Origin: a virus
Length of the DNA: 64,000 nucleotides
Reading direction: 5' to 3' (one strand)
Virus record (IMG/VR): IMGVR_UViG_3300002141_000152
Span: 44,971-108,970 of that record
This document shows positions 44,921-63,362 of the stretch, piece after piece; the first letter of the stretch is position 1; every line of letters starts with the position of its first letter. Position numbers and translations under genes: made by a program. A model generated the notes under the pieces. It made no database searches, was not told the DNA's origin, and saw only the letters and a list, made by a program, of their open reading frames with translations.

Positions 44921-45242
44921 AACACTAATATTTTAATTTATTTATCACTCCCACTCGGCCACTAACTAATAAAATAGAGAAGGTAAAGTGGCAGACAGCC
45001 CTAATAATTCTACTACTCATATTATTATCAACGCTAGAGAGACTACACTAGACCAGAGTCACCCAGCTAGAAGAGACTCGGTAGAACCACCTAGTAGCAG
45101 CCAAGTCAGGTACCTTCACTACGGAGTCCCGGCTACCAAGAGACCGACTAGACCTAGGAGACCCGACACCGAAGGTTACACCTCCACTACGGAGTCCAGT
45201 GACCAGACACTAGTCGGCCATTGACCAGTCACCATACCAGGA

Positions 45243-45304
45243 GTCGCCAACCCTAATACGAGACGGTGGCCAACCTCAATACGAGAAGTCGCCAACCTCA
45301 ATAC
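45243..45304 (+). repeat. three iteron-like direct repeats (~22-bp period)
   Basis: GTCGCCAACCCTAATACGAGA / GTGGCCAACCTCAATACGAGA / GTCGCCAACCTCAATAC. Confidence 0.75.
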
Positions 45305-45486
45305 CTGGCAGCGCCCTAATTTGTAATGCAAAGCGCGGGCGTCCGCCTACTTTCACTACGGAGTCCCAAGAAAAACGCGTGCCACCGACTATCAACACTT
45401 GCCACCTGTGGCATGTTGCTACCAGGTGCTACTCTTTCCAGATTGTGGCATGCTCGGCGGGATAAATAAAAAGAAAGAAGTAACTT

Positions 45487-46176
45487 ATGTACGCAAACGA
45501 AGCAATCGACTTGCTGGGGTGCAGCTATAACGGCCTACGTAAGTGGGGCAGCCGTGGCAAGATACGCCGGTGGAAGGACGACCATGGCAAGTGGATCTAT
45601 AACGACGATGACGTCTGGTCGATGATCGGCAAGCGGGTCTCAAAAGAAAGCCTGACGACCATCTACTGTCGAGTAGCCGGGACTACGGAGTCCGACCGCA
45701 AGGTCATGGCCGAGCAGCAGCGGATACTCCACCAATGGTGCTCTGCTCGTGGACTCTCAGTAGACAGGCAGTACGAGGACTGGGCCCCATCTACGGAGTA
45801 CTCCCTGGAGGAGAGACCTGGTCTGCACCTCTTGCTACAGGATATAATTCAAAAGCGTGTCTCCGCCGTGGTGGTCGAGACTCCTGACAGGCTGGCTCGT
45901 ATTGGTCGAGAGTTGATCGAACAGCTCTGCCGTTACTACGGAGTCCAGCTCGTGTATGTAAATAGGGTGATTCAAAAACCCGAGTACCTAGCCGAGCAGG
46001 AGGCAGATATTCTCAGGCTCCTAAAGAAGGCCAAGATTGAGAGACTAGCTGAGGTTGGTGTCGAGACCCTGCCTAGACCAAAGAAGGTAAAGTTAAAGGA
46101 TCCAGGCAAGATTGTGCCGACTTGGGAGGGTGAACCCTTACCTGCTAATTCGCGAGACTTGAGTGACTTGATATAA
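45487..46176 (+). CDS. IS607-TnpA-like serine recombinase (MerR-type HTH + resolvase fold) with catalytic Ser replaced by Ala
   Basis: EAIDLLGCSYNGLRKW HTH; YCRVAG in place of YARVSS; ERPGL; DRLARIG; no tnpB adjacent. Confidence 0.8.
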   Translation: MYANEAIDLLGCSYNGLRKWGSRGKIRRWKDDHGKWIYNDDDVWSMIGKRVSKESLTTIYCRVAGTTESDRKVMAEQQRILHQWCSARGLSVDRQYEDWAPSTEYSLEERPGLHLLLQDIIQKRVSAVVVETPDRLARIGRELIEQLCRYYGVQLVYVNRVIQKPEYLAEQEADILRLLKKAKIERLAEVGVETLPRPKKVKLKDPGKIVPTWEGEPLPANSRDLSDLI

Positions 46177-46192
46177 TTCAATTTTGGAGAAA

Positions 46193-46687
46193 TTAAAGAA
46201 GAGAGGAATCATGTACAAAGATAAAATCAAAGGTCAGCACAGAGTCAATTTCGCTGTGGCCATAGAGAGCCTGCTGAATTGCAGTGTCTAGGTCTTCCTC
46301 CGCTAGATCACTTGCGATGGTTAAGATAAATTTATAGAGAGGCTTGCCATAGTAAAGAGATCGATACTTGTCGGATCTAGTCCCCTCTGATCCCTCAAAC
46401 TGGACGTCGGAGACGAGACTCCGGTCGACAGTAGAGACGCTGTCTGCAACAAGTTCAACAAACTGGTCGATGTCTATTTCTTCTAGTGGCAAATTGTGCC
46501 GCATGCGAACGCCAAGAGTGACCTTGTACCTCCACTCAAAATCTTCTGATTGGAGTGGAATCCCGGACTCCTTAGCTAGGGTAACGTATTCACTCTTGCT
46601 AATGAGTCCACTGGTTAAGAGGTCACGTAAGACCTGCTCCTCGTCGTCTCGTGATTCCCGAAGATACCTCTTAAATGACTTTAACAT
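46193..46687 (-). CDS. CTS-like leader + SHOCT-like helix protein
   Basis: MLKSFKRYLRE...LRDLLTSGLISKSEY. Confidence 0.6.
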   Translation of the reverse strand: MLKSFKRYLRESRDDEEQVLRDLLTSGLISKSEYVTLAKESGIPLQSEDFEWRYKVTLGVRMRHNLPLEEIDIDQFVELVADSVSTVDRSLVSDVQFEGSEGTRSDKYRSLYYGKPLYKFILTIASDLAEEDLDTAIQQALYGHSEIDSVLTFDFIFVHDSSLL

Positions 46688-46706
46688 TGACTATTAGTTA
46701 TTTTAA

Positions 46707-46733
46707 TTATTTATCCAGGGCGCCCTATAAATA
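46707..46733. promoter_or_regulatory. back-to-back T4-type late promoters
   Basis: ATAAATAA on minus and TATAAATA on plus (46726-46733), separated by the palindrome AGGGCGCCCT. Confidence 0.6.
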
Positions 46734-46748
46734 AAAATAAAAAAGGAA

Positions 46749-46898
46749 ATGGCCAAGAAATCCACCAACTCTGCCACTGCTACAGCAGTCAGGGTTAAAG
46801 TTAAGAAGAAGAGACCGGGTGTACACTCGAAAACCAAGTGTGATGTGAACAAGCGAAGCAAACACTGGGTCAAACTGAGTAGAGGACAGGGTAAGTAA
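46749..46898 (+). CDS. 49-aa very basic protein ending RGQGK
   Basis: Not in ORF track: MAKKSTNSATATAVRVKVKKKRPGVHSKTKCDVNKRSKHWVKLSRGQGK; late promoter upstream. Confidence 0.65.
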   Translation: MAKKSTNSATATAVRVKVKKKRPGVHSKTKCDVNKRSKHWVKLSRGQGK

Positions 46899-47186
46899 TC
46901 CAGTTCTTCAGTCCGTTATTTAGAAGGGAGCCTCAGACGGGACTCCCTTCGCCAGTTATATTGATACTTTAGTTGAGGGTCGGAGTCACTCCTGTGTCGC
47001 GAGTTGAGGTGACTTTAGGTACTGAGCCGGCTGGAAAAGTGTCTCTACGCCAGAGTGGTCTGGGCTCCATGGCTGCGGGTGAGTCCAAGGCTCCCGCGGG
47101 CAGGGGATTTGCCAGAGACCCGACCGGCGCCACTAGCCAGAGACGCTAGCACGCACCCGCCTGCGGGGAGCCGTCCCTTACTCCAT

Positions 47187-47214: not shown

Positions 47215-47233
47215 ACGGTCGTCAAACCAATAC

Positions 47234-48415
47234 CTACAGTGTCGCGAATTGTGCGAATTGCAAGTCGTATCCGTCCTTAGTACCTTTACCGAAAAGGTGT
47301 CCAGCTTGTTCTTTCAATTGGTGTTTGTTCTCCAATTGCAGGCCGGAATTGTTGGAACCAAGGAATGTCATTGAGTTTACCACGTCCCAAATACTTTGGC
47401 CGGTCTTGATAAAGCTCTTCTGCTTATCGTTCAATCTCATTGGGTCTTGTCCTTTGCGTACGATACGTCCCATAGTCTCAGCATGTGAGTGGAAGTATTT
47501 ACGAGCAACGGTGTCGATGAATGCTTTCTTCAGGGTTGGGTCGTCTTCTCGAACCATTCGTTGTGAGCTAATCATGGCATTCTCGACTTCAAGCAAGCTT
47601 GCTTTTGTATTCACAGCGGACTCTAGTGCGGTGTTGAAACCTACCGGAATAAAACCAGCTTTATTCATTGTCTCAATACGTCCAAGGAAATTCTTAATAT
47701 CGTCGGCACTTGTTCCACCTAGGCGAAACTTCTCTTCGAAATTAATATCACGGTTTGCACCGATCGCACCTTGTCCTAAGCTTACACGAAGTCCATTGCT
47801 ACATACCAATCTCTGATTGTACATTTCAACTGTCGTGTCTTTAGAAGACTGAATAATCGAGAAACCAAATTTAAAGAACTCGTCTTTACCGGCTCCAGGA
47901 AAACCTACCTCTTCTCCATTCAGCAAGTTGATAACTGTTTTTCCACTATGTGGATTGAAGTCAATTGTCTCGATACTTAAGTTTGAGTTACCATTCATAA
48001 TACGAGATGTCATATCAAAAACAGTTTCATTGGTCATTCTACGAAAACGTTTAGGATCGCAGATGTCAATAATTTCGCGACTTGTTGGGCTAGCAATCAA
48101 CATGATTTCTGTACCTCCATGCGCTTGACGATAGGATTTCAAGCCATTCAATAAACTTGTAGCAATCTTGCCGTCCTCGTTCTTAATCATCTCACGAGTT
48201 AAGGACTGATTTACCTTTAGCATTCCTGCTAATTTTTGAAAGAATCCTTGGCCAACAGGTACAGCTTGTCCGCTGACGTTGATTGTTCCTCGTGCGATGG
48301 AGTTGTCGTCCAGCTCGATTGCGCCTAGTGGCACGGTTTTTGTAATACACTCAGCTTTTGCGAGTGTCTCGCGAATCTGTTCGAATTCGTGGTCTGATAC
48401 TTCTTTTTTTGCCAT
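47234..48415 (-). CDS. DUF932-like protein
   Basis: RLVCSNGL motif and WDVVNSMT. Confidence 0.5.
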   Translation of the reverse strand: MAKKEVSDHEFEQIRETLAKAECITKTVPLGAIELDDNSIARGTINVSGQAVPVGQGFFQKLAGMLKVNQSLTREMIKNEDGKIATSLLNGLKSYRQAHGGTEIMLIASPTSREIIDICDPKRFRRMTNETVFDMTSRIMNGNSNLSIETIDFNPHSGKTVINLLNGEEVGFPGAGKDEFFKFGFSIIQSSKDTTVEMYNQRLVCSNGLRVSLGQGAIGANRDINFEEKFRLGGTSADDIKNFLGRIETMNKAGFIPVGFNTALESAVNTKASLLEVENAMISSQRMVREDDPTLKKAFIDTVARKYFHSHAETMGRIVRKGQDPMRLNDKQKSFIKTGQSIWDVVNSMTFLGSNNSGLQLENKHQLKEQAGHLFGKGTKDGYDLQFAQFATL

Positions 48416-48496: not shown

Positions 48497-49612
48497 TTAT
48501 TCCTGTTTCGCAGGTTCTTCTACGGAGTCCACCGTTTCTGGCTTCTTAGTAAGGAAGATTTCTTCAAACTTACGAGTCAGGTCGTGTTGGCGTATTGACT
48601 CCTTGTTCTCAATCTTATTCATCTCCTCACTTTCAGTGTATCGTTCTGAATCGTAAACTACTGCACCCTGTTTATCAAGCGTGTAATATAATCTCTTGTT
48701 TACTCCGCCACCACCTCGACGATTTTTTGAAAACTCAACATATCGATTACCACTTAGGTCAAAACGAATTTCAAGCATGGCAGTCGTTGCGTGTTTTAGG
48801 TAGGTGCTACCGACATAGGTACCTCCTTTGGTCATGTGTTGAATTGCCAAGACCGCGCAGCCATCTTTTTCAGCAGCAGTAATCATCATGCCAGTTAACC
48901 AAGACTCGGCTTGCGTTGATTTCCATTGCTGTGCTTCTTTCAATTTTACTAGAACATCTTGGTAGGAGTCAAGCACAATAATATCATAACCTCCATTGAA
49001 GGCTACCGATAATACTTCACTCAGCTTTCCGTTAGCAATATAGTCCATCAGCAATAGTGTTGGTACCTTACCGATTGATGGAGTTTTCTTGTAGTAAAAC
49101 AGGATATCATTACGGGTCATTTCACTTGATATATAAAGTATCTTTGCCTCAGGATTGGTGTCCTGTACAGAAGAAAGAACGTCTAATAAGATAGTCGACT
49201 TGCCGACACCCGACTCACCAATTACAATATTAACAGTTCCACCATAGACTCCACCGCCAGGTTCATGGTCCGAGAAGAGGTCATCGATCTTTTTGCCAGT
49301 CTTGTGCAACTTGAATTCAGGAAAGACGAGGTCTTCTACTTTAATAACGTTCGGCACGATTGGGACTACGGAGTCCAGCTCGACTGCACTCACATCAGTT
49401 TTGGTTTCGCGCACTCCGCCTTCTGCTAGGATTTTCTTCAGTACTCCATTAAAGAGTCCATACGAAACTTCTTCATCGAGTGCAGCGCCGACTCGATTTT
49501 CAAAATCGATAAATGAGTCTAACACTTTACCTCGCGGTACCTTGCCGTCGTGCGACTTGTTAATCCATCGACGAACACTCTGTTCTTTTTTACCGCCCTT
49601 AATTTCTATCAT
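48497..49612 (-). CDS. RadA/Sms-like RecA-fold ATPase
   Basis: GESGVGKST, LYISSEM, VLDSYQ, HMTKGG..VGSTYLKH, KNRRG. Confidence 0.75.
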   Translation of the reverse strand: MIEIKGGKKEQSVRRWINKSHDGKVPRGKVLDSFIDFENRVGAALDEEVSYGLFNGVLKKILAEGGVRETKTDVSAVELDSVVPIVPNVIKVEDLVFPEFKLHKTGKKIDDLFSDHEPGGGVYGGTVNIVIGESGVGKSTILLDVLSSVQDTNPEAKILYISSEMTRNDILFYYKKTPSIGKVPTLLLMDYIANGKLSEVLSVAFNGGYDIIVLDSYQDVLVKLKEAQQWKSTQAESWLTGMMITAAEKDGCAVLAIQHMTKGGTYVGSTYLKHATTAMLEIRFDLSGNRYVEFSKNRRGGGGVNKRLYYTLDKQGAVVYDSERYTESEEMNKIENKESIRQHDLTRKFEEIFLTKKPETVDSVEEPAKQE

Positions 49613-49676: not shown

Positions 49677-50165
49677 TTACAAACTTTCTTTTGACAATTC
49701 ATCAAGTCTAATGCGCTCAGTATTTGATAAATTAGTAAGACCTACCTTACTGACAAGATCGAGCAACTGATCTAGCGATAGCTTCACCTCAACTCTAGCT
49801 TCTACTGGAATATCCTCAGCTAGGGGTTCAGGTGTCGTGCCTTTCTTAATCTCCCGAGTCAGTAACTCAAATGCCTTACTTACAGCTGGTCCAAAGTCTT
49901 CGGAATTTATTGCAAAACCGGGAGAAGTCGTGTCCATTACAAGTACAGGTAGCCTATCGCCGGTTCCCTTGCCGACTTCATAGAATCCTTCGGCTATCTT
50001 TGTCGGGCTCCAATCAGTATAGATTAAAGTTATCATACCCTTATTTGGAACTGGTATGCCGAGTGCTAGGCGAGCGTTGCAGCCTGCAATTGCGGCAAGC
50101 AGTGGCATCTCATTACCGACAGGTGCGTCCTTGCCGAACCTGAATATTAGAACTATTCTTTTCAT
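49677..50165 (-). CDS. hypothetical protein
   Basis: C-terminal LDQLLDLVSKVGLTNLS..E...L helix pair. Confidence 0.55.
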   Translation of the reverse strand: MKRIVLIFRFGKDAPVGNEMPLLAAIAGCNARLALGIPVPNKGMITLIYTDWSPTKIAEGFYEVGKGTGDRLPVLVMDTTSPGFAINSEDFGPAVSKAFELLTREIKKGTTPEPLAEDIPVEARVEVKLSLDQLLDLVSKVGLTNLSNTERIRLDELSKESL

Positions 50166-50170
50166 ATTAT

Positions 50171-50518
50171 TTAGAATTTATAAAGTAAAATAACTCTATT
50201 GATAAAATTATCAAAGTCATCTTTTGTAATTTGATCAGGTCTCACTGGATAAGGATTGAGGCACATCATCATGTCTCTCTCTTCACGTGCAGTATTTGCT
50301 GCAGTTGGATATGGTGTTGCATCGTGCCATAATTGTACTAAATCCTGATCATAATAGATTACGACAATTGGTGGCTCTTGATCTGGAATCGGATTTGGAC
50401 TAACTGAACACTGGAAAAAGTTTCCAAACTCTTCATCTGGGCCATTCTCTTGCGCGGAATCAAGATCGATTAATAGATCTACTCCAAATAATTCTTGTAA
50501 TTTAGTGTGGGTTGTCAT
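50171..50518 (-). CDS. early hypothetical protein
   Basis: Directly downstream of a repeated promoter. Confidence 0.55.
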   Translation of the reverse strand: MTTHTKLQELFGVDLLIDLDSAQENGPDEEFGNFFQCSVSPNPIPDQEPPIVVIYYDQDLVQLWHDATPYPTAANTAREERDMMMCLNPYPVRPDQITKDDFDNFINRVILLYKF

Positions 50519-50584
50519 GTGTGTTTAAGTTTTAATATTGAGTAAATGTAATAAATTAGTTTGACACTAAAAAATCGGGGCAAA

Positions 50585-50809
50585 TTAAAACCAGCTCTTA
50601 CAATTATAGCATTTAGATGAGTCATCTACTTTGTATGCGCCAATTCTCCAAAACCACTTTTCAGTATTTCCTGGGTCAACGGCCGATGCATATACTTCGC
50701 GCGCTCCACAGTGTGGACACTGCAGCCCCTGTTTGTCAGGCTTCTCTCCGCATTTTTCAATAATTGCAGATTTAATTGATTCTTCTAAAATCTCAGATAG
50801 TGTATCCAT
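50585..50809 (-). CDS. small Zn-ribbon protein
   Basis: CPHC...CYNC. Confidence 0.55.
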   Translation of the reverse strand: MDTLSEILEESIKSAIIEKCGEKPDKQGLQCPHCGAREVYASAVDPGNTEKWFWRIGAYKVDDSSKCYNCKSWF

Positions 50810-51021
50810 ATGTCTTGTTTTTAATGTTAAGTAAATATAACTACTTATGTTGACACTAAAAAATCGGGGCAAAATATTTTTTTCGCCGCGAGTGGGTCTC
50901 TATCAGAGACGCGCCCAGCGCACGCCGAAAGCAGAGACGCCACGGATCCACTCGCGGCCGGTTTTTTAAAACAAAAAAAGCTCCAATCTCTTGGAGCTTT
51001 TGATAAGTCAGTATTTAATTG

Positions 51022-51420
51022 TTATTCAATTAGGGTTTGTGGATTACGATTATTATATGTTGCAAATACCCATTTATCTTCCTTAGTAAGAAGATACCCA
51101 TACTCTTCAATATCTCCATGGAAGAATTCATCAACGCTTGCATGATCGGCGGCACCTGTTCCTAACTCTCCACGGTCACGATGATATGCAACAACTACAC
51201 CACCTTGTGGGTTAGAAAATGAATGCGGACCTGTCGGGGATATCTCTTCGCTAAGTGAGGATATATCACCTAACTTAATTAGGGCTCTAACCTTCTCCCG
51301 ATCAGTGTAAAAGTTATTTAGGATTCTACCATTATGGTCAAGGTAGCCATCGTTGTGGCAGTAAATAGATTTAACCTTTCCGTCTGGTAATTCGATTGCG
51401 ATTCTGCTTCTTGTTGACAT
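51022..51420 (-). CDS. conserved phage early hypothetical protein
   Basis: MSTRSRIAI...SIYCHNDGY...AYHRDRGE. Confidence 0.6.
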   Translation of the reverse strand: MSTRSRIAIELPDGKVKSIYCHNDGYLDHNGRILNNFYTDREKVRALIKLGDISSLSEEISPTGPHSFSNPQGGVVVAYHRDRGELGTGAADHASVDEFFHGDIEEYGYLLTKEDKWVFATYNNRNPQTLIE

Positions 51421-51480
51421 AACTTATAGTTTTAATGTTGAGTAAATATAACTAGTTAGTTTGACACTAAAAAATCGAGG

Positions 51481-51903
51481 CTAATCTTTATTATTAAATA
51501 TTACTTCAAACAATCCTTTTGAATTAATTTGGATTGGAGTTCCAGTATATTGAAGTAATGCTTTCTTCAAGGAGGAAACAGACTCTCTACGCTCACGACT
51601 TTCCAGTGACCATTCATCATTATCACAGGCATCAATCATCTTGGTTTTAACTGTCTTAGTTAATTTAGCACCGCTGTGCAAGACAGCTACTGCCAATACT
51701 TGCCATGCAATCTCTGGCTGGTAATCGGCATGTCGCTTCACCTCAGCGATAAATGCTTTCATGTTCTTCTCTACCGCTTCCTTTGAAAGAGTGGCTATTC
51801 CGCCAGACATTGGAAATTTTTGTACTTGTGCAATTTCGAAGAATGTATCTTCTACATCGAGCGGACTATCTCCACCCATGATATCGGTTGACCACCATCC
51901 CAT
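51481..51903 (-). CDS. early hypothetical protein
   Basis: 140 aa, starts MGWWS. Confidence 0.55.
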   Translation of the reverse strand: MGWWSTDIMGGDSPLDVEDTFFEIAQVQKFPMSGGIATLSKEAVEKNMKAFIAEVKRHADYQPEIAWQVLAVAVLHSGAKLTKTVKTKMIDACDNDEWSLESRERRESVSSLKKALLQYTGTPIQINSKGLFEVIFNNKD

Positions 51904-51973
51904 AGTTATTTGGTTTTAGATTTATTAGTAAGTATTTCGATTTATAGAGTAAATATAACTAGTTAGTTTGACA

Positions 51974-52255
51974 CTAAAAAATCGGGGCAGACTTTCTTTT
52001 CTCTTTATAGTATTCAGCCGTAACTTCTTCCTCTACTAATTTTCCAAACATCCACTTCTTGGTCCGGGTCAGACTCTCTATTCTAGCACGTGAAGAACGA
52101 GCAGATCTGTTTTTAAGGTCTTCGATCGTTGCATCAAGAACTCGAATATGGGATTTCAAATATATTATATTGTTAATACATTGAAGTCTTAAGTCCACCC
52201 AATCAATTTGTGGTGGAGGTGCTACCGGTTTCTTCCTGAATATCCCAAATATCAT
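51974..52255 (-). CDS. hypothetical protein
   Basis: 93-aa ORF. Confidence 0.5.
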   Translation of the reverse strand: MIFGIFRKKPVAPPPQIDWVDLRLQCINNIIYLKSHIRVLDATIEDLKNRSARSSRARIESLTRTKKWMFGKLVEEEVTAEYYKEKRKSAPIF

Positions 52256-52485
52256 TATCGTATTTTTCTAATTACCGCAATTACACATCCTGTACTGTCC
52301 TTTGCAAGGAATAACATTCCTTTATTATAGGAACGCTGGTTTTCCCAATTCCATTCAATCGGAGTTCCATCACACGTTGTGGCTGGAATATCCGCAGGTC
52401 GAGTTGGGTGATACGGGTCAATTTCTGGTCGGCCATCATTGCATGAGGCAATAATTAATCCAACAAATAATAATATCTTTTTCAT
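52255..52485 (-). CDS. putative lipoprotein
   Basis: MKKILLFVGLIIASC lipobox. Confidence 0.55.
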   Translation of the reverse strand: MKKILLFVGLIIASCNDGRPEIDPYHPTRPADIPATTCDGTPIEWNWENQRSYNKGMLFLAKDSTGCVIAVIRKIR

Positions 52486-52527
52486 ATAGTAAATATAACT
52501 AAATTTGGTGAAACAAAAAAATCGGGA

Positions 52528-52794
52528 CTAATAAATTTTTACTGTAATAATTGTGGCTGAGTGTCCAATACCACTACTCTGCTTCACAGTCACTGCACCA
52601 TTCTTTTTAATTAGGTCAAGCACCTTACGATATTTCAAATCAGGCTTGGTGATTCCGCCTAGGAACTTTGCTATCTCATAGGCTTTAGCTATCGTGTGAC
52701 AGATTCCCATAGACTCTTGCAAAGAGTTTTCCCAAGCGAGACCCACTCGCGGCGGAGCATCAGATATAATTACGTATTTTGTATTTTTTGGCAT
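52528..52794 (-). CDS. hypothetical protein
   Basis: 88-aa ORF. Confidence 0.5.
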   Translation of the reverse strand: MPKNTKYVIISDAPPRVGLAWENSLQESMGICHTIAKAYEIAKFLGGITKPDLKYRKVLDLIKKNGAVTVKQSSGIGHSATIITVKIY

Positions 52795-53078
52795 TCAATA
52801 ATTTTCTGTTTTAAATTAAGTATAAAAGCACAATCTTCATACTCTTCCACACCTTCAAAATATTTCAGCAGTGACTCTAACGCTTTTATCTTCTCAGCAG
52901 TTGGCGCATCATCGTCAACCGCAAGTTCAGGATATTTCTTTAGTGCAGCTAATATCATCTTCATAAAAGCCGCTGGGTCCTTCTTCTTAATATCGTTTAA
53001 GGCTCGGATCAGTTCTTCATCTCTTAATGGGTTCATCTTACTACGGAGTAAAGGGTTAATACTTAGCTTCAAACTCAT
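52770..53078 (-). CDS. protein with UVR-like helical hairpin
   Basis: LLKYFEGVEEYEDCAFILNL. Confidence 0.5.
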   Translation of the reverse strand: MSLKLSINPLLRSKMNPLRDEELIRALNDIKKKDPAAFMKMILAALKKYPELAVDDDAPTAEKIKALESLLKYFEGVEEYEDCAFILNLKQKIIECQKIQNT

Positions 53079-53780: not shown

Positions 53781-53792
53781 CTTACTACGGAG

Positions 53793-54509: not shown

Positions 54510-54575
54510 AGTATATAGTTTTTAATGTTAAGTAAATGTAACAAATTAGTTTGACACGAGAAAATCGGGGCTCAC

Positions 54576-55275: not shown

Positions 55276-55544
55276 AATAAAAAGATTATTTTTTTGTTTA
55301 ACTTAATTATAATACTAAGTATTTAGGTAAACATAAAATATTCCGATAATTATTTCTTGGCGGTGCCATCAACAACCGCTCCAATAAACTTAATTACCTG
55401 GCCGGCTGCAAGTCTGGTCTCTGAAAACCAGTGAACATCTTTCTTCTTGTGTGTGTTATCCCAAAGGACACATGCAGTAAGAGCAAAGAATATAAATGTA
55501 ATACCTAGGAATATCGTTTTCATATTATAATAATACTAATAGGT

Positions 55545-55868
55545 TTATAATTGTTTCTCTAAATCGATTAGAACACTACATAACTCGTATTGTTCGCTGT
55601 CTGTAAAATACGTTAAACAATCCTGCAACCAGCGTGGGTACTCGTCTCTAGCAATGTTCACTACGGAGTCCGAGTCTTTTACTGCAAATGCAGGTACTAT
55701 CGATAGATTCCCTGTGATACCATTATATAGGGCTGAAAGAAATGCAGCGTGTACTGCAGCATGCTCTCCTTCCATGAATTCTTTAATATCTCGGTATGGA
55801 GAAGCATCTAACTCTGGAATTTCAAAGTCAGTATCTAATTCTTCGACATACTGAATAATATAATTCAT
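55545..55868 (-). CDS. protein with UVR-like helical hairpin
   Basis: CLTYFTDSEQYELCSVL. Confidence 0.5.
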   Translation of the reverse strand: MNYIIQYVEELDTDFEIPELDASPYRDIKEFMEGEHAAVHAAFLSALYNGITGNLSIVPAFAVKDSDSVVNIARDEYPRWLQDCLTYFTDSEQYELCSVLIDLEKQL

Positions 55869-56119
55869 CGCTTCTTCTTTTTATTATTTATAAGCTCAAG
55901 CTCTTCTGCCCAGTCCATTAACTGTACGTTATCTTCAGCCCACTCCTTTGCACCAGCCAGGGTCTCATCGCGTTCTGTCCTAGGCACGAGCTTGTCAGTA
56001 ACAGCAAATAGGGTATAGATACCGGTTACTTTATCTTCACGATTAAGCCGTATCCATACCACTCCGCGGTTGCATGTGCCGCGTACATGTCTCTCTAATA
56101 GGGGTTCCCAACGAATCAT
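55865..56119 (-). CDS. hypothetical protein
   Basis: 84-aa ORF. Confidence 0.5.
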   Translation of the reverse strand: MIRWEPLLERHVRGTCNRGVVWIRLNREDKVTGIYTLFAVTDKLVPRTERDETLAGAKEWAEDNVQLMDWAEELELINNKKKKR

Positions 56120-56454
56120 TTTCTATTTGGATTTAATTCGTATATATGTACTTCTTTTATTGCGGCCGGTGGGATTCTCTTAGGACTTACCAGCGACTTT
56201 CCCACACCAAATATTGTAACCATTATCGGGCTGTGATCTGTGCCCTCAATTAATCTGGAGGGATCGACTTCCACTTCAATAATCGCCATATACTTTTCTC
56301 CCATCGCTGCAAATCTAAATCCCATCCAGCGCATTGCACTCTCTGCAGAATCAGTTAGGTATACTCCTTCCCACTTAGATATTAATCCTTCCATTTTAAT
56401 GCGATCAACATTATCTACGTGAGTTGCGTGGAATAGTCTTACTTTCTTGGCCAT
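56116..56454 (-). CDS. ADP-ribosyltransferase-fold protein (Tpt1/KptA-like NAD-binding half)
   Basis: LFHAT...IKMEGL...GVYLT...IPPAAI. Confidence 0.55.
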   Translation of the reverse strand: MAKKVRLFHATHVDNVDRIKMEGLISKWEGVYLTDSAESAMRWMGFRFAAMGEKYMAIIEVEVDPSRLIEGTDHSPIMVTIFGVGKSLVSPKRIPPAAIKEVHIYELNPNRK

Positions 56455-56457
56455 GGC

Positions 56458-56640
56458 TTAGTAATTTAAAGGTTCAATCGTTGGCACGTCTCTTACAATC
56501 ATCCACTGGCAGTTAGATAAGCTATACTCTAATACACCTTCGATAAACTCCTCAGCGTCCATCGTGTTGGAATCATTTATACCTAGTAGATATAAGCATT
56601 CTACTTTACCTGTTTCAAAATTTAGGATAACTGCATACAT
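56458..56640 (-). CDS. small early hypothetical protein
   Basis: Has its own promoter copy. Confidence 0.5.
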   Translation of the reverse strand: MYAVILNFETGKVECLYLLGINDSNTMDAEEFIEGVLEYSLSNCQWMIVRDVPTIEPLNY

Positions 56641-56672
56641 AATATATAAGTTTTAATGTTGAGTAAATATAA

Positions 56673-56933
56673 CTAACTAGTTTGACGCGAGAAAATAGGG
56701 GCAATAATTTGTTCCACCTTTTCTGGATTCTGGTCAAACCACTCAATGAGTCTCCCAAACTCGGATAAACCCAGGTTCGACCGCATAAAGTCAAACACTC
56801 CATCGTAGTCTTCCATACTATAGAAACCAGGAGTATCGATATACTCGTCTCCCATTATTTCGCGAAGCTGACCTTCACCAGTGGCATCGATTGCAATTAA
56901 AAATTGCTCTAATCTATCTTTTACTTTTCCCAT
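56673..56933 (-). CDS. hypothetical protein
   Basis: 86-aa ORF. Confidence 0.5.
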   Translation of the reverse strand: MGKVKDRLEQFLIAIDATGEGQLREIMGDEYIDTPGFYSMEDYDGVFDFMRSNLGLSEFGRLIEWFDQNPEKVEQIIAPIFSRQTS

Positions 56934-56938
56934 TCTAT

Positions 56939-57226
56939 TTAAGTTTTAATGTTTGCTGTGAACTGTTTAATTATTTCTTCTAAATCTTCAATTACGGCAC
57001 CTGCCTTACTGCATCTCAATAGTGCAATATCAAATACAATATCATTATCTGCAGTTTGCTGTATTGCCCAAAGATATGTTCTCACAAACTCTGAACCTTT
57101 TTTGCTCTCCGGTTTTAAGTCAAGCATTGCTAAACCTCCTTGAATACGAGTAAGATGTTTTTGTAGATTCGGTGCTCTAACTGTTTGGTTGTGCACCTCT
57201 TGTTCTGTTGGAATTTTTGTCATCAC
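56939..57226 (-). CDS. early hypothetical protein
   Basis: Has its own promoter copy. Confidence 0.5.
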   Translation of the reverse strand: MMTKIPTEQEVHNQTVRAPNLQKHLTRIQGGLAMLDLKPESKKGSEFVRTYLWAIQQTADNDIVFDIALLRCSKAGAVIEDLEEIIKQFTANIKT

Positions 57227-57311
57227 TTTAGTTTTTAAGTTTTAATTATAGAGTAAATATAACTAATAGCCCCGACCTGTAACAATCGGGGCTAGAATAT
57301 TTACTACGGAG

Positions 57312-57947
57312 TTAAGCTGCTAATTGCTTAGGGTCAACTGGGCCAGACATCCATGCTCCACGGCGACCGCTCATCTTCGTCGGGTACCAACTGTATAACT
57401 TCTTTAAGATTAGTGTTGCTTCTTTCTGGAATTCGCGCAACTCCCGGTTCCATCGCTTCTCTGCAAGTTTGTCAATTGCTGCCGCAACACTCTTGCCTCT
57501 AGCATCATACCATGCTCGACGGTCTTCTAATTCAAACTCGGCATCCTCTAAAAACGTTTCGAATTTAAAAGTCGGAATTACCGCAATTGGAAGGTGCGAG
57601 TATTCTGCACTCGTCTCAGTAATAACGTATACTCGTTGACCTTCTGCTAGGATAAGACCCTCATTTCGAAAGGCACTGGATAATTCTTCATATCCATTGG
57701 CTCGAGATTGCAAGTCCCATGGGGTCAATCTTAGTTCTGATGCTAGACACTCTGCCAGGTCTTCGAAACCAAACTCAGACTGTTGGTCAACCTCCGCATA
57801 AACATCATCATCATCTGGTTCTTTACCAAACTCTTCTGCAAGTCTTTCTTTCACCGAGTCAAAGTCCTCGCTGAGGTCAATAAAGTAAGTGTTGGGTTCG
57901 AACTTATCATTGTCGAACGATCGTAAGTGTGGATTGCCTGCGCCCAT
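57312..57947 (-). CDS. acidic early hypothetical protein
   Basis: 211 aa; own promoter copy. Confidence 0.55.
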   Translation of the reverse strand: MGAGNPHLRSFDNDKFEPNTYFIDLSEDFDSVKERLAEEFGKEPDDDDVYAEVDQQSEFGFEDLAECLASELRLTPWDLQSRANGYEELSSAFRNEGLILAEGQRVYVITETSAEYSHLPIAVIPTFKFETFLEDAEFELEDRRAWYDARGKSVAAAIDKLAEKRWNRELREFQKEATLILKKLYSWYPTKMSGRRGAWMSGPVDPKQLAA

Positions 57948-58010
57948 AGTTTTGTAGTTTTAGTTTTTAATTATAGAGTAAATGTAACAAATTAATTTGA
58001 CACTAAAAAA

Positions 58011-58214
58011 TTACTGTAAATATATTTTTAAACATTTTTCACATCCAATGTGTTCTACGTTTTCAATTCTAGCATGGTTTGAACTTAACATTGGTGTTCC
58101 ACACAACGTTGTTCCACTAAATGTACCTGCTTGGGCAATGTGGGCTGTGTTGCTCCAAACATTTCCTTTGTTGCCGAACATGTAAAAATTTTCTTTTAAG
58201 TCTGCTGTTTTCAT
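58011..58214 (-). CDS. small His/Cys early protein
   Basis: AHI...TLCG...CEKC. Confidence 0.5.
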   Translation of the reverse strand: MKTADLKENFYMFGNKGNVWSNTAHIAQAGTFSGTTLCGTPMLSSNHARIENVEHIGCEKCLKIYLQ

Positions 58215-58442
58215 CTTTTATAGTTTTTAATTATAGAGTAAATATAACTAATTAGTTTGACACGAGAAAATCGGGGCACAAAAATTATCTTGTCCCTGGC
58301 CAGATCGAACATCTCTGTCAGAGACTCTTCCCAGCCATCCGTGGATTTGGTCAAAAAAAAGACCAGCAATCGCTGGTCTCCTTAGGTCAATTTCTTGGTG
58401 GCGGCACCTTTACCCGGCCGTGACCCGCACTTAGGAAGCTCT

Positions 58443-58652
58443 TTATGCTTCGATAATGTCCGCTTCGCTAACTTCGAATGTAAAAATCTCAAAGTCTTCA
58501 TCAATCGTTTCTTCGCTATACTCATACTCCAGTAACAGTTCGCGTGTACACTTCTCAGCATGGTCCATTGTTTCGGCCTTGATGTGGAAGATAATTGGAC
58601 TGCGGAATGTTCCTTGGAAATCTGTAACTACTGTGCAAAATAATCTTTTCAT
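58443..58652 (-). CDS. small acidic early protein
   Basis: Start MKRLFC after promoter copy. Confidence 0.5.
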   Translation of the reverse strand: MKRLFCTVVTDFQGTFRSPIIFHIKAETMDHAEKCTRELLLEYEYSEETIDEDFEIFTFEVSEADIIEA

Positions 58653-58721
58653 AATTTCTAGTTTTAATTGGTTATGAAGTAAATATAACAAATTAGATTG
58701 AACTCTTAAAATCGGGGCAAA

Positions 58722-58952
58722 TTACTTAATGTTTCTATCCGGTGGGTGATATAATTCTTCTAATTTATCTAAAACCTCACTCGAACTATCCGCATCATGG
58801 TGTAATATAATATCTAGAATGATTTCACGCCAAGTGGTTGGCTCCTTTGTAACACTAACCTCCTCTGGTCTTAGCGCACGTTGCGCTTCTTTGTATGCTT
58901 CAAATGTCCCATATTCATCTAAAATTTCTTGATATTTTTCGTTTGAGTTCAT
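58722..58952 (-). CDS. hypothetical protein
   Basis: 76-aa ORF. Confidence 0.5.
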   Translation of the reverse strand: MNSNEKYQEILDEYGTFEAYKEAQRALRPEEVSVTKEPTTWREIILDIILHHDADSSSEVLDKLEELYHPPDRNIK

Positions 58953-58974
58953 ATATTTTTTAAATTTTTATTTA

Positions 58975-59283
58975 CTAATTTAGGTCAGATGTATCTGGAA
59001 TCATACACGCTCCAAATTCACTTACTCCGCTTGCTGCGACTTCCGATATAAGTGCCATTGATGCTGTTAAAAATCTGTACAAATCTAATACTTCTCTACG
59101 ATCCTTTACAGACAGTCGTGAAAATGCTTTACTTACTATAAACTCTTCCTGTTCAGATATTTTCATCTGCATTTCAATCAACGTTGCTACTTTCGACCCA
59201 GGAATAATTTGTGGCATTTCATCTTTAACTCTAGGTTTACGTTCTGGTTTATCCCAGCTACATTTGAATCCTACTTTGCTCAT
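58975..59283 (-). CDS. early hypothetical protein
   Basis: Has its own promoter copy. Confidence 0.5.
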   Translation of the reverse strand: MSKVGFKCSWDKPERKPRVKDEMPQIIPGSKVATLIEMQMKISEQEEFIVSKAFSRLSVKDRREVLDLYRFLTASMALISEVAASGVSEFGACMIPDTSDLN

Positions 59284-59480
59284 AGCTTTATATTTTTAAT
59301 TAGTTATGATGTAAATATAACACATTAGGTTGACACTAAAAAAATCAGGAGAATAATAATTTAGCAGAGACCCACTCGCCCGGCAGATGTCAAGCTGCAG
59401 TTCAGCTAAAACAAGAAAGGAGCAGATACCTCTGCCCCAATCCCGAACTTAAACCATGCTATTACTACGGAGTAAACCGG

Positions 59481-59735
59481 TTATTTTCCTTTTGCATCAT
59501 TATATAGCTGTGCAGCCGTATCATAATCAAAATTTGAACTGAGTATTGCTCCTATCTCCATTGAGAAATTGGTATGAAAAAATTTTAGTGTCTTTGGTGT
59601 TGTGTTTACGTATGGAATTACAGTGTGCAGCACACGCATCCGCTCTCTGATTCCTAGCTTCTTTAGGTAGCTTCTTACCTGCTGCTCAGCTCCTGTCTGT
59701 AGGAGGTTGCTTATTTGTATTGGGCTCATTCGCAT
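59481..59735 (-). CDS. hypothetical protein
   Basis: 84-aa ORF downstream of the tRNA-like RNA. Confidence 0.5.
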   Translation of the reverse strand: MRMSPIQISNLLQTGAEQQVRSYLKKLGIRERMRVLHTVIPYVNTTPKTLKFFHTNFSMEIGAILSSNFDYDTAAQLYNDAKGK

Positions 59736-59759
59736 AGTAGTTTAGTTCAACCTATAGAG

Positions 59760-59877
59760 TAGTCAGGACAGGATTCGAACCTGTATTTACACTTTACTTG
59801 TATTAGCTGTGTCCGATAGATTGGGTATCAATACATTTCCCTCACTACCTGCTCTTAACCATTAGAGCTACCTGACT
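59760..59877 (-). ncRNA. tRNA-like RNA, 118 nt, with expanded anticodon/variable region
   Basis: AGTCAGG-TA-GCTC-TAATGGTTAA-GAGC D arm, ~65-nt insert, ACAGG-TTCGAAT-CCTGT-CCTGACT-A. Confidence 0.7.
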
Positions 59878-59902
59878 ATTTAATTATTATACTAACCTTA
59901 GT

Positions 59903-60181
59903 CTAATCATTTATAAAAAGAAATTTAAACTCGGCAATTACTGGCGTCTTGCCTCTATACCACCAACCTGCAATATCCTCTCCACTATCTGACGAGTCTA
60001 CCTTAAATCGGGTCATCTTTACCTGACCTCCTGTTCTAGGATTCTTCACATAGATCGGGGCTCCTTCAAAACATAGGTTAGTAATTTCAAAGCGAGTCTG
60101 CTCTAGGCTAGACAGCTCTGCGACAAACGTTCTGTCTGCTGGGTCAAATGTAATTGCTGGGTGTGTTACGTCTATTATCAT
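59903..60181 (-). CDS. early hypothetical protein
   Basis: Has its own promoter copy. Confidence 0.55.
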   Translation of the reverse strand: MIIDVTHPAITFDPADRTFVAELSSLEQTRFEITNLCFEGAPIYVKNPRTGGQVKMTRFKVDSSDSGEDIAGWWYRGKTPVIAEFKFLFIND

Positions 60182-60383
60182 AGTCTTTCGGTTTTTAAGT
60201 TAAGTAAATATAACTATAATCTTTGACATAATAAAATCAGGATAATAATAGTGCATCCGCAGCCAGTGCCGGCGTGTGAGTCTCTACCTAAAAAGCAGAG
60301 ACACTCTTGCTGGCGGCCTAGCGGGTGGACAAAGAAAAAGGCGGGAACCACCCCGCCTTTTGCTAACTTAAACTTAAAACTAA

Positions 60384-60806
60384 CTAACCAAAAACTATCT
60401 TCTTATAAAATACTGTTTGAATAATACAGTCTGCTGTGTCTGCATCATCTCGCTCTTCAATCGCATCCATCAAGTGGTGGATAGGAGTTTTTGCAACTCG
60501 CGAGTGCACATCCTTTAGGGTTATCTTCTTATCTCCAACGGCGTTCTCTTCGTCTACCATGATAAGGGTTCCACCGGTTCGTAGGATTTCCATCCAAATA
60601 TCTTCGCAGCATATTCGGGTCATCTTCTCTCCACATGAGTCAATTGCAGTTCCTGCTTTCATCTTTGTGTGAAGACTCTTCTTCGCAAGTTTATAATCCT
60701 TTTCAGAATAATCTAGGTGTATTCCATAATATCTGATTTGGCTGCCGTTACATAACGCATTGTGGAAATGTTTTTCGGCTTCTGCTTTTTCTAATACTAT
60801 TTTCAT
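60384..60806 (-). CDS. early hypothetical protein
   Basis: C-terminal DADTADCIIQTVFYKKIVFG. Confidence 0.55.
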   Translation of the reverse strand: MKIVLEKAEAEKHFHNALCNGSQIRYYGIHLDYSEKDYKLAKKSLHTKMKAGTAIDSCGEKMTRICCEDIWMEILRTGGTLIMVDEENAVGDKKITLKDVHSRVAKTPIHHLMDAIEERDDADTADCIIQTVFYKKIVFG

Positions 60807-60868
60807 GGGTTTTAAGTTTTAATTATAGAGTAAATATAACTATTAAATGTGACACTAGAAAATCGGGG

Positions 60869-61216
60869 TTAAAGATTATTTAATTTAATGTTACGTTTTT
60901 CAACATATTTTAAGCTACCGAAATTTTTCCAGCGAAAAACCCATTCGATTTCTCTTAGTGACTCTTTGCCATACGTCTTGGAAATTTTAGTCTCTATTCG
61001 ATCCACCTTTTTACTCCACTTATTAATATCGTGACTGCCCTCATTGATTGCCGCTAGCAGCATGTCTCTTTCTCCTGCCGGCCGGACACAGTAATACTCT
61101 TCTCTCCAGTCTGAAATATTCTGGCCCATTGCATCTATTTTTCTGGTTAGTCGATACACTTCTTTTACTAGCAAGTTGCTTGCGTAAAGTGTCGGTATTT
61201 TCTTTTTAGATTTCAT
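60869..61216 (-). CDS. early hypothetical protein
   Basis: Has its own promoter copy. Confidence 0.5.
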   Translation of the reverse strand: MKSKKKIPTLYASNLLVKEVYRLTRKIDAMGQNISDWREEYYCVRPAGERDMLLAAINEGSHDINKWSKKVDRIETKISKTYGKESLREIEWVFRWKNFGSLKYVEKRNIKLNNL

Positions 61217-61295
61217 AGGTCAAGTTTTTAATGTTAAGTAAATATAACTAAAAACCACCAAGATAAAAAATCCTGGTGGCCAAAGTTATGAACAA

Positions 61296-61496
61296 TTAAT
61301 CTTTCACCTCTACATAGTTTCCTGCATCATTAAAGTTACTCATCCACAGGGAAAGGATTCGACGAGCCTCTGACTTTTCAAGTCCAAACTCTTCAATTAC
61401 ATAGGGTGTGGCACCAAACATATTGGTCGCACCACTCTCTCGTAGGGAGTTAAGGAATTCCATTACTTCTTTTTCTGATTGGGTTGTTTTTCTCAT
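61296..61496 (-). CDS. small conserved phage protein
   Basis: LRESGATNMFGA. Confidence 0.6.
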   Translation of the reverse strand: MRKTTQSEKEVMEFLNSLRESGATNMFGATPYVIEEFGLEKSEARRILSLWMSNFNDAGNYVEVKD

Positions 61497-61865
61497 AGTC
61501 TTTAGGTTTTTAAGTTAAGTAAATATAACACAATATATTTGCACCGAACAATCGGGGCCAAAGTATTTTCAATTACAGTCCACTCTTGGTTGAGCTCTTG
61601 GCGCCATGCGGGTGGGCGCTCTCTGAAGTCCGACGGGCAGGCGTTCACTACGGAGTCCAGCTGAGACACCACTGGATCCGCCGCACAGGAAACCAAAAAA
61701 AAGCCGGAACTAGTCCGACTCTTTTTAACGCTAGTCCCGTTATCTCCGCTATAGGAAAGTATGAAAACTTATAGCATCATAGACAATTACATAACCACCA
61801 TAGCTGACCTACTTCTTCTTCGCTTTTTTATAATATTGGTAATGAGGACTCTTATGTATATTTAT

Positions 61866-62129
61866 TTATTTTATTACTAAATAATATAATCCACCGGCTG
61901 GCGTGTCATCGTCTCCATTAAAGAAATGATATATTTGACCCCTGCTGTCGGTAACTATAAAATTCATACAATACAAAGGAATCAACTTTTCAGGTAGCTG
62001 CACCGACTCTCCAATAAGAGTGTCAAGTTTACGCTGCACCTTTGCTCTACGGTTTACACCAAGCTGGGCTTTCCACCTGAACTTGATATACTGGTCTCCA
62101 GTTACGGGATGGGTTTTCCAATTTGCCAT
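61866..62129 (-). CDS. hypothetical protein
   Basis: 87-aa ORF. Confidence 0.5.
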   Translation of the reverse strand: MANWKTHPVTGDQYIKFRWKAQLGVNRRAKVQRKLDTLIGESVQLPEKLIPLYCMNFIVTDSRGQIYHFFNGDDDTPAGGLYYLVIK

Positions 62130-62130
62130 G

Positions 62131-62346
62131 TTATCTTGGGATTAGGTGAAGTAACTCTTGGTGTAGGATCTCTGGGTCTTCGTCATATCTTCCGTCTTCC
62201 CATGCAGTGACTAGGGATTTAAGATTCTTATTATTCTTGTTGGTGACTCCGCTGGTCCGAGCTCTCGCTAACTGGTCAGCTGGTGTAGATATCCAGGTTC
62301 CCATCTCTAGTAGCATGCACTCTAGTGTAATAGTTGTTTTTGCCAT
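62131..62346 (-). CDS. early hypothetical protein
   Basis: Own promoter copy; GRYDEDP. Confidence 0.5.
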   Translation of the reverse strand: MAKTTITLECMLLEMGTWISTPADQLARARTSGVTNKNNKNLKSLVTAWEDGRYDEDPEILHQELLHLIPR

Positions 62347-62530
62347 AGTCTTTAGGTTTTTAAGTTAAGTAAATATAAAACAATTATTCCACACCCAAAA
62401 ATCAGGGCTAAAATTATTTTTTAGCAGAGACGTTTCACACGCCGGTCAGGTAACACTCTTACTACGGAGTAGACATGAAAAAAGGCCGGATAAAAATCCG
62501 ACCTCTAATCAACTTAAACCTAATGTTCTC

Positions 62531-62839
62531 TTACTCGTCGAGTCTGGCTAATGCGTTACTAATTTCAATTGCTGCTTGTGCTGTCTCAACCAAACGCTGC
62601 CCACCGATATGCCACTCTATCTCCTCGTCATCGGCAATTCGGCGATATTCTTTCCAATCATACACGGTAAATGGGGCGCCTCCATCGGTCTCCATTTCCC
62701 ATTCGAAATTGACCTTATCTCCACTATCGTTGCACTCATACGCGGGCTGACCTAGTATCTGGCGTAGCTGGCTTACTGTTGCATGGATTACTGTGCTGTG
62801 GAAGCTTGTTCCGTTTACTGATTTTGTTGTTGGCTTCAT
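62531..62839 (-). CDS. conserved phage early protein
   Basis: Start MKPTT; GDKVNFEW...FTVYDWK...WHIGG. Confidence 0.55.
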   Translation of the reverse strand: MKPTTKSVNGTSFHSTVIHATVSQLRQILGQPAYECNDSGDKVNFEWEMETDGGAPFTVYDWKEYRRIADDEEIEWHIGGQRLVETAQAAIEISNALARLDE

Positions 62840-62907
62840 AGTTTTAGTTTTTAAGTTATAAGTAAATATAACAATAATACTATAACACCCAAAAATCGGG
62901 GCTAGAA

Positions 62908-63150
62908 TTAATTTACTTGAAATACACTCTTTGCTCTTGGGTTTCCGTCCTGGTCCATCACCCACAGTCTCCCATTGACGAGGCAATAGTGTACACTATG
63001 GAGTAACGGATGCTCTGACTGGATTGTGACCAGGCTATGCTCCTCGCCAGCGACTCTGATTGTGGTTAGGATATTAAGTTCCTCCTTCCCAAGGAGAACT
63101 GTCGGGAACTTCACAGGTTCCTCTTGATTTAGATATTCGGTTAGTGTCAT
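62908..63150 (-). CDS. hypothetical protein
   Basis: Start MTLTEY. Confidence 0.45.
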   Translation of the reverse strand: MTLTEYLNQEEPVKFPTVLLGKEELNILTTIRVAGEEHSLVTIQSEHPLLHSVHYCLVNGRLWVMDQDGNPRAKSVFQVN

Positions 63151-63362
63151 ATTATTTTTTTGATTTAACAAGGTTAATGTACTTCATCTCATAATCTTCT
63201 GCCAATAGTGGATTACTCTTCCTAAGAGTGGTTATCGCATGTATCACTTCTGCACCGGTTTTTGTTCCGTGTCTGAAGCCTAATAGTGCTCCAATTACTT
63301 TCTTCTCTAAATGTTCTGACATGCTTTTATTTTAAATAATTACTACTACGGAGTAAAATGGT

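Follow-up and report, generated by a model that had tools for sequence, protein, structure and literature searches.

What reads a short DNA word that recurs on a single strand along one arm of a phage genome, and against what is the direction of such a word kept? The locus that raises these questions lies in the IMG/VR virus record IMGVR_UViG_3300002141_000152, a single contig of 108,970 bp. We analysed its final 64 kb (bases 44971–108970), hereafter the window; positions are those of the window unless stated otherwise. The contig is that of a phage, encoding a portal protein, a DNA polymerase, a helicase, a ribonucleotide reductase, and an endolysin, and the genomes carrying the word form a family of uncultured freshwater jumbo phages. 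The best candidate reader is a protein encoded beside the word that resembles the transposase TnpA of the IS607 family of insertion sequences and has lost its catalytic serine (hereafter the TnpA-like protein). Two other genes accompany it, one for a RecA-superfamily ATPase and one for a conserved protein of 393 amino acids (aa).

A confined field of identical, co-oriented words

The word CTACGGAGT occurs as 16 exact copies on the + strand of the window, between positions 45119 and 63354, and not once on the − strand; 100 dinucleotide shuffles gave a mean of 0.22 copies and a maximum of 2. An earlier reading of the window made from its letters alone (the original prediction) had reported the same 16 + strand copies where well below one was expected, the lack of a full copy in the first 45 kb, and a partial reverse copy near 41473, which is ACTCCGTAT. 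All of these observations were reproduced, and the remainder of the contig contains no further copy of CTACGGAGT on either strand. Six copies are grouped within 45.1–45.95 kb and the later ones are 744–3675 bp apart, close to the recurrence of about 1–3.5 kb first described. The start of this field of sites at 45.1 kb is indeed abrupt: G+C content rises there from about 0.35 to 0.41–0.46, and late-type genes give way to early-type ones. The description of the word as a directional signal marking the early-gene arm is supported.

Because an A precedes the word in 86% of 110 sites from the window genome and its relatives, we define the unit as the 10-mer ACTACGGAGT. In this unit, inverted arms of 3 bp (ACT/AGT) flank the asymmetric centre ACGG, and the whole sits within an asymmetric site of 13–14 bp with the flank preference T[TG]A...[AC][AC]. 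Its family-wide form is ACTA[C/G]GGAGT. Both centre variants can share an array, so that C or G is tolerated at one position by the reader.

The search for relatives with the ATPase, a profile of the TnpA-like protein, and a TnpA-like subfamily as queries resulted in about 50 related contigs from IMG/VR and metagenomes. Five contigs of 118–137 kb have 10–17 copies each, all on one strand and within one field of 20–27 kb; for clade A the single field measures 19–27 kb. The word of a sister clade (clade B) is ACTAGGGAGT, which reads ACTCCCTAGT on the opposite strand. In complete genomes of 271 kb (CheckV 100%), the variant is found 10 times in one internal stretch of 8 kb and nowhere else, and the size of the field across carriers ranges from 8 to 27 kb. 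A whole-genome count had been suggested as a way to see whether the orientation flips at a second locus or at a genome end; the complete relatives have neither a second locus nor a flip at the end. Near-identical contigs of 270–271 kb begin at different places, which favours a circular or permuted map and argues against a role tied to the genome end. With the field also internal, a function in ejection, one of those originally listed, or at the genome terminus is unlikely.

Selection on the DNA rather than on the proteins

By the evidence of sequence comparison, the word is a signal selected at the level of the DNA, as the original prediction had proposed. When sites can be aligned between genomes, the 9-mer is identical at 9/9 positions amid flanks that are 50–75% identical and rich in insertions and deletions. 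The sites lie in intergenic DNA, in disordered linkers, and in several reading frames. Those of the ATPase gene fall in a linker of variable length and in the C-terminal tail, and they slide between alignment columns among relatives. In the AlphaFold2 (AF2) model of this protein, the segments with a low predicted local distance difference test (pLDDT) score (residues 71–81 and 358–371) coincide with the sites, at residues 80–83 and 362–365. Among the frames listed originally, TTES, STEY, YYGV, DSVE, and DSVV are all found in the window; LRS is absent from its open reading frames (ORFs), although a homologous site in relatives has this frame.

The sites are also all-or-none. Three fields have 49 exact sites on the favoured strand and 2 with one mismatch, and one-mismatch copies are thus no commoner there than on the other strand, which has 5. 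Slightly less than half of the dispersed sites (27/55) are non-coding or at the edge of a gene, in an arm whose non-coding share is 17–22%, and 13 of these 27 lie at most 9 nt after a stop codon. We read this placement as the one where a site harms least.

In-place reversal of the polarity of whole fields

The comparison of carriers shows that the direction of the word is not fixed relative to the genes. In the 127.5-kb contig G2, all 16 sites and their flank preferences are reversed with respect to the early genes, the early promoters, and the TnpA-like gene. Collinearity of G2 with G1 to either side of the arm shows that the arm itself is not inverted. Over all contigs, about 40 fields are entirely forward, 9 are entirely reverse, and 3 are mixed (L133, 1:8; L122, 2:6; L121, 3:4). 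The nine reverse contigs belong to two separate lineages in the tree of the TnpA-like protein, and the flipped lineages have unchanged gene order and promoters.

An alignment of four related contigs (72–80% identical) shows the flip in place. At position −34 from the start codon of the TnpA-like gene, L134 has ACTACGGAGT and L127, L130, and L133 have ACTCCGTAGT, with identical flanks (GTGTATAGGG ... AACACTTAAAA) around either orientation. The site inside the gene of the 393-aa protein is forward in L134 and L133 and reverse in L130; this flip is synonymous (CTC CGT to CTA CGG), with the conserved motif GLRS encoded by both. One flip thus amounts to exactly two substitutions with the flanks kept, and it has occurred at many sites of the same genomes. 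We saw no palindromic ACTCCGGAGT intermediates. A search for a physical inversion of the array in the reverse lineages gave no cross-group high-scoring segment pairs in either orientation. The flips and the mixed leftovers imply selection for agreement among the sites, or between them and the array upstream of the TnpA-like gene, a pattern that transcription as a reference does not explain. The polarity of the word is therefore judged against the other sites and not against transcription.

These data divide the original comparison of the word with Chi, FtsK-orienting polar sequences (KOPS), and parS. The directionality and the link to the early arm stand, and the suggested coating by a protein is near the reading that we favour below. 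The tie of Chi- and KOPS-type words to replication arms or DNA ends does not carry over, because whole lineages have the flipped word with an unchanged gene order. The original prediction made no connection between the word and the serine-less IS607-type gene beside it.

Linkage of the field to a serine-less IS607-type protein

Every field-bearing contig (about 50) carries the TnpA-like gene with an array directly upstream, and in all relatives this array consists of 3–5 co-oriented 10-bp sites at most 600 bp from the gene. The array of clade B has 4–5 sites with an exact period of 57–58 bp. The same period is found in L057, L041, and L052, so that phased arrays have 2–5 sites when clade B is counted, and their spacers are G+C-rich and non-conserved. 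One subfamily has a site at −34 from the TnpA-like start codon. A scan of IMG/VR with a two-site pattern gave 33 matches, about the number expected by chance; the only relatives among them were L041, L052, and L057, those that also encode the TnpA-like protein. In the window, a non-coding stretch of 560 bp upstream of the gene holds three sites and the gene itself holds three more. The genes of the ATPase, the 393-aa protein, and the TnpA-like protein have a constant order wherever a contig reaches them, the last of them being convergent with the other two in the window.

The TnpA-like protein has an N-terminal MerR-like helix-turn-helix (HTH) followed by a resolvase domain (Pfam: HTH_17, E=7e-4; Resolvase PF00239, E=1.9e-12). 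Its profile matches the structures 3lhk, 3lhf, 6dgc, 3ilx, and 6dgb of IS607-family TnpA (E=4e-20 to 7e-10), whose catalytic domains are its nearest solved relatives; the HTH also weakly matches RacA (E=0.005). The protein of the window reads YCRVAG, with an alanine at the nucleophilic serine of Y-x-R-V-S. In 14/14 aligned homologues, which keep DRLxR, the residue at this serine is A, P, N, D, or G, and the serine is also replaced in most of the top 46 clusters from a search of 1.8 billion representatives. Beyond these clusters are canonical IS607 transposases with YxRVS. The neighbours of the gene are the conserved 393-aa gene and late genes, in one order in the roughly 50 contigs, which is not what a mobile insertion sequence would show, and no tnpB was seen among the screened arm proteins of the window. 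A search of viral contigs for the more distant TnpA-like relatives P0014 and P0029 was negative.

Long forms of the TnpA-like protein (L001, L002, L006, P0003, P0019, and P0034; 46100–46176 in the window) end in a conserved peptide ...LSDL(I/M) after a variable linker rich in K, P, and E, and short forms are without it. From its sequence, this peptide looks like a tethered docking motif for a partner. A prediction of the complex of the ATPase, the 393-aa protein, and the TnpA-like protein scored 0.00, an absence of answer that counts neither way. The 393-aa protein had no match in Pfam or PHROGs; with its AF2 model (pLDDT 78), no structure passed E≤0.001 in Foldseek, and the highest Z from VIA-align was 5.9.

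A domesticated transposase as candidate reader

We tentatively favour, at somewhat less than an even chance, the reading that ACTA[C/G]GGAGT is a candidate binding site of a dead transposase that pairs or coats the early arm. A precedent comes from the TnpA of IS1535, which binds four 9-bp direct repeats, spreads as a sequence-neutral filament, and captures a second DNA (PMC6188088). The fit lies in the protein family, the direct repeats of 9–10 bp, the array beside the gene, the site over the gene's own promoter region, and the mutual orientation of the sites.

The reader would be a domesticated serine transposase that has lost its nucleophile and appears to be made from a late-type promoter. 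It would bind the double-stranded word, nucleating on the array upstream of its own gene and on the satellite sites found each 1–3 kb along the early-gene arm. From there it may form cooperative, polar nucleoprotein filaments and capture a second DNA segment in parallel, as its transposase relatives do. Pairing or coating of this kind needs co-oriented sites, so that each site would be selected to agree with the others and above all with the array. Such agreement among sites gives two stable states, all forward and all reverse, with rare mixed intermediates. The late-type promoter of the gene suggests that the protein acts on the early arm late in infection. The likely outcome would be an organisation or silencing of the early region at that stage, together with autoregulation of the TnpA-like gene; we infer silencing, organisation, or preparation for packaging or replication as the possible outcomes.

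A more specific version seems doubtful to us. In it, the field would be a self-referential polarity code: late in infection, a descendant of a serine transposase, itself without the serine, zips up the early arm, which becomes parallel-paired or coated in a polar manner; the sites need match only the master array, and the two mirror states switch in evolution by in-place flips of two bases. If true, this would be a previously undescribed viral way to organise or silence a region of the genome, and a new fate for a domesticated serine transposase.

Several observations weigh against a dead transposase as reader. All carriers belong to one phage family, and the linkage of gene and sites is therefore confounded by shared descent. 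Two of the top 46 clusters (P0019 and P0026) retain the nucleophilic serine, so that activity is possible for some members of the family. All-or-none exactness would suit an enzyme or a tracking motor better than a regulator. The known TnpA motifs are about 10 bp apart near transposon ends, not 57 bp or kilobases apart (PMC6188088). Finally, the coat or synapse reading leaves the restriction of the sites to just the early region unexplained.

Alternative explanations

The alternative that survives best, which we consider unlikely, posits a one-directional DNA motor that loads at the array, be it the ATPase, a replication fork, or a packaging terminase, and that the words guide or stop as polar signals. 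The array would fix the direction of travel and the dispersed words would have to match it. A flip of the array would then select for flipping all the rest, in agreement with the mixed and flipped genomes. The word is also exact, short, asymmetric, and all-or-none, as are Chi, KOPS, or the SpoIIIE recognition sequences (SRS), and a RecA-superfamily ATPase is always adjacent. However, this ATPase is only generically RecA-like, the sites on either side of the array point the same way, the field ends after 8–27 kb, and the exact phasing of arrays at 57–58 bp points to static cooperative binding.

The array could instead be a replication origin with iterons or a packaging (pac) site. The TnpA-like protein would then serve as the initiator or as a factor akin to the small terminase, partnered by the ATPase and the 393-aa protein, and the dispersed copies would be accessory or handcuffing sites. 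We regard this as improbable. The array of direct repeats does adjoin genes for a site-specific DNA-binding protein and a helicase-like ATPase, the TnpA-like gene has a late-type promoter, and its HTH is of the MerR/excisionase type, which some small terminases also use. But the array region is G+C-rich and without an AT-rich unwinding element, the complete genome G006 has no skew inflection at the field, and an origin or pac site leaves unexplained why 10–17 satellites are strictly conserved over 20 kb, even in genes.

Slightly less probable again is that the word is recognised by an enzyme nicking one particular strand, like the nick sites of T5 or LUZ24/tf-like phages, with concordant polarity sparing the other strand. 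This would suit exact words strictly on a single strand, and an arbitrary choice of the nicked strand would allow two states. Against it, we found no nuclease domain among the 30 arm proteins screened, the adjacent recombinase-like protein is without a nucleophile, mixed-orientation genomes exist, and neither phased arrays nor the −34 site are features of known nick sites.

A role in transcription or RNA (promoter, terminator, processing site, or stoperator-like polar roadblock), suggested by the position of the word on the sense strand of the early genes in most genomes and by the roughly half of dispersed sites that are intergenic, often 0–9 nt after a stop codon, is hardly credible and already largely refuted by the flipped lineages, since nine contigs have an antisense word with genes and promoters unchanged, mixed genomes occur, promoters and hairpins are distinct repeats located elsewhere with no fixed distance from the word to starts or promoters, no Rfam match and no hairpin covariation in the flanks were found, and stoperators lose their function on reversal (PMC9283540).

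Three narrower ideas found no support. A scan for sigma-70 promoters and terminators showed that the word coincides with neither. A hairpin GGACT-ACGG-AGTCC was discarded, as the flanks of 206 distinct sites do not covary beyond their marginal frequencies. No joints of recombination or cassettes occur at the word, those of variant strains (weak data, from contigs only) being at promoter/hairpin repeats. A literature search with the sequence of the word itself returned primer matches only.

Genomic setting of the field

The features of the locus are gathered in Table 1. Outside the early arm, ATAAATAA is found 20–30 nt upstream of the start in 23/109 genes; it resembles the late promoter of T4 and probably acts as a late-type promoter. 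The arm has about 18 copies of a composite unit (50500–64000, − strand), made of a hairpin, 30 nt, TATATTTAC, 31 nt, and an ATG. The hairpin opens with GCCCCGAT (GCCCCGATT...GGGGC), and the hairpin with its TAGTTATATTTACTTA element is probably an early promoter with an upstream hairpin, which resembles the TAnnTTTG element of Bacteroidota. Relatives have their own versions of the unit, TTCTTATATTTA...TATAACTTAAAACAAA in G2 and TTGTTAATAACTTT in clade B. The word and these units are separate elements with no fixed distance between them.

Table 1. Sites, genes, and regulatory elements of the word field in the window.
Feature	Position	Strand	Remarks
Master array, three ACTACGGAGT sites	45118-45127, 45186-45195, 45355-45364 (array 45118..45365)	+	G+C-rich non-coding DNA between two divergent putative late-type promoters
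Putative late-type promoter word ATAAATAA	45462..45469	+	18-25 nt upstream of the TnpA-like start codon; conserved in relatives
IS607-TnpA-like protein, 229 aa	45487..46176	+	Pfam PF00239 and HTH_17
Three sites inside the TnpA-like gene	45683, 45791, 45936	+	Exact CTACGGAGT
Conserved 393-aa protein	47234..48415	-	Always between the ATPase and TnpA-like genes
RecA-superfamily ATPase, nearest RadA helicase/KaiC	48497..49612	-	By homology; contains two sites
Site in the C-terminal tail of the ATPase, frame DSVE	48520..48528	+	Exact word
Site in the variable linker of the ATPase, frame DSVV	49366..49374	+	Exact word
Early-gene arm, about 35 small ORFan genes	49677..64000	-	ORFs and repeat units
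Dispersed site, 7 nt past the stop codon of an early gene	53041..53049	+	Exact word
Dispersed site adjoining the sigma-70-like gene at its stop codon	53785..53793	+	Same place in relative L006
Dispersed site within a 107-aa early ORF, frame DSVV	55661..55669	+	Exact word
Dispersed site abutting a stop codon, followed by a hairpin	57304..57312	+	Exact word
Dispersed site, 8 nt past a stop codon	59465..59473	+	Exact word
Dispersed site, in a doubtful 64-aa ORF or intergenic	61648..61656	+	Exact word
Dispersed site directly downstream of a terminator-like hairpin	62462..62470	+	Exact word
Outermost site of the window, 9 nt past a stop codon	63346..63354	+	Exact word

The arm encodes a sigma-70-family protein with regions 1.2, 2, and 4 (53793–54509, −) and a WYL_2 domain protein (63608–63856, −); nearly all its other genes have no Pfam match. 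We found no tRNA genes, and no Rfam family at E≤1 within 44–64 kb. No GenBank phage matched the arm in a megablast search, tblastn with the ATPase gave no cultured relative, and a scan of genome contigs gave a single match, a 1.6-kb contig binned into a metagenome-assembled genome of the candidate phyla radiation. Matching DNA was present in 24 runs, which we read as assembled Logan contigs. In contigs from four lake or aquatic runs the arm is joined differently (for example, 50583 to 62344, 50874 to 57234, and 58266 to 58708), and these variant joints (window 50178–62390) fall at the promoter/hairpin repeats. Recombination at such repeats seems to reshuffle the early-gene cassettes, with gains and losses from strain to strain.

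Other repeats and compositional features were noted beside the field. Three copies of GCCAACC(C/T)(C/T)AATAC (45222–45304) lie between the array sites and are not common to the arrays of relatives. In a 21-kb locus of a clade-B relative (L018, contig G010), a single strand of the early region carries all 26 copies of the strongly polar word AAAGAGTTTACC and all 19 of its companion GGCTGTAC. The genome G006 has further G+C-rich islands at 75–80 kb and 200–210 kb (0.45–0.46 versus 0.35–0.40), the first of them sparsely coding. Before the window, the contig starts (bases 1–200) inside a reverse-strand gene with collagen-like Gly-X-Y repeats, which are the probable cause of the break in the assembly. 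Going by CheckV-type estimates for relatives, the full genome would measure about 250–270 kb.

Significance and relation to known systems

For this word a definite candidate reader can be named: a catalytically disabled transposase of the IS607 type, with relatives known to bind direct repeats of 9 bp and to bridge DNA. Its field is a master array with satellites confined to one region of a 270-kb genome. The flipped lineages are natural "mutants" in which the polarity of every site was reversed in place, in some cases by synonymous changes, and the mixed genomes capture intermediates. They rule out explanations based on the sense of transcription and point to cooperation from site to site, a property open to study in vitro although no phage is in culture. 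If the favoured reading is true, a serine transposase has been domesticated into a genome-organising protein, which would also provide a model for other fields of polar words.

The IS607-family transposases are one of the close comparisons. Like the TnpA-like protein, they have an N-terminal MerR-like HTH followed by a resolvase-type domain, and they bind short (9–10 bp), asymmetric direct-repeat motifs, several of them beside the gene, as the phage protein is a candidate to do. Unlike them, the phage protein has its nucleophilic serine replaced and is accompanied by neither tnpB nor transposon ends. Its gene is a conserved resident of jumbo phages rather than part of a mobile element. The phage sites are 57–58 bp apart in the array and kilobases apart across 8–27 kb, whereas those of the insertion sequences are about 10 bp apart within 60 bp of the end.

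The stoperators of Cluster A mycobacteriophages, read by gp71 in L5 (PMC9283540, PMC6550527), are, among dispersed asymmetric phage sites, the nearest that have been described; they too belong to the 13-bp class and occur in more than 10–20 copies, with a preference for short intergenic spaces, and are likewise read by one phage DNA-binding protein (here, a proposed one) with a site at its own promoter. Their orientation follows transcription and reversal abolishes their function (PMC9283540), whereas here whole lineages are reversed and orientation is not fixed to transcription. The candidate reader is a dead serine transposase and not a repressor with an HTH and a stoperator domain. In addition, the phage is not evidently temperate, its field is confined to one arm, and its sites are invariant.

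The words Chi (RecBCD/AddAB), KOPS (FtsK), and SRS (SpoIIIE) share with the phage word an exact, asymmetric form of 8–10 nt, a strong strand polarity, and a density of about one copy every kilobase or few, genes included. Those words are genome-wide, with a polarity tied to replication arms or dif, whereas the phage word occupies 3–20% of the genome, is reversible in place, and has a polarity tied to no visible feature of the map. RacA with ram and ParB with parS provide a likeness in their region-restricted, dispersed sites read by a DNA-organising HTH protein (here a candidate). They differ in that ram and parS are palindromic and have no polarity; moreover, no ParA-like partner is found here and the match to RacA is marginal. 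Iteron origins and pac sites share the array of direct repeats beside the gene of a candidate recognising protein. What sets this phage system apart from the known dispersed polar sites is the combination of its candidate reader with a polarity that can be reversed and has the other sites as its sole reference.

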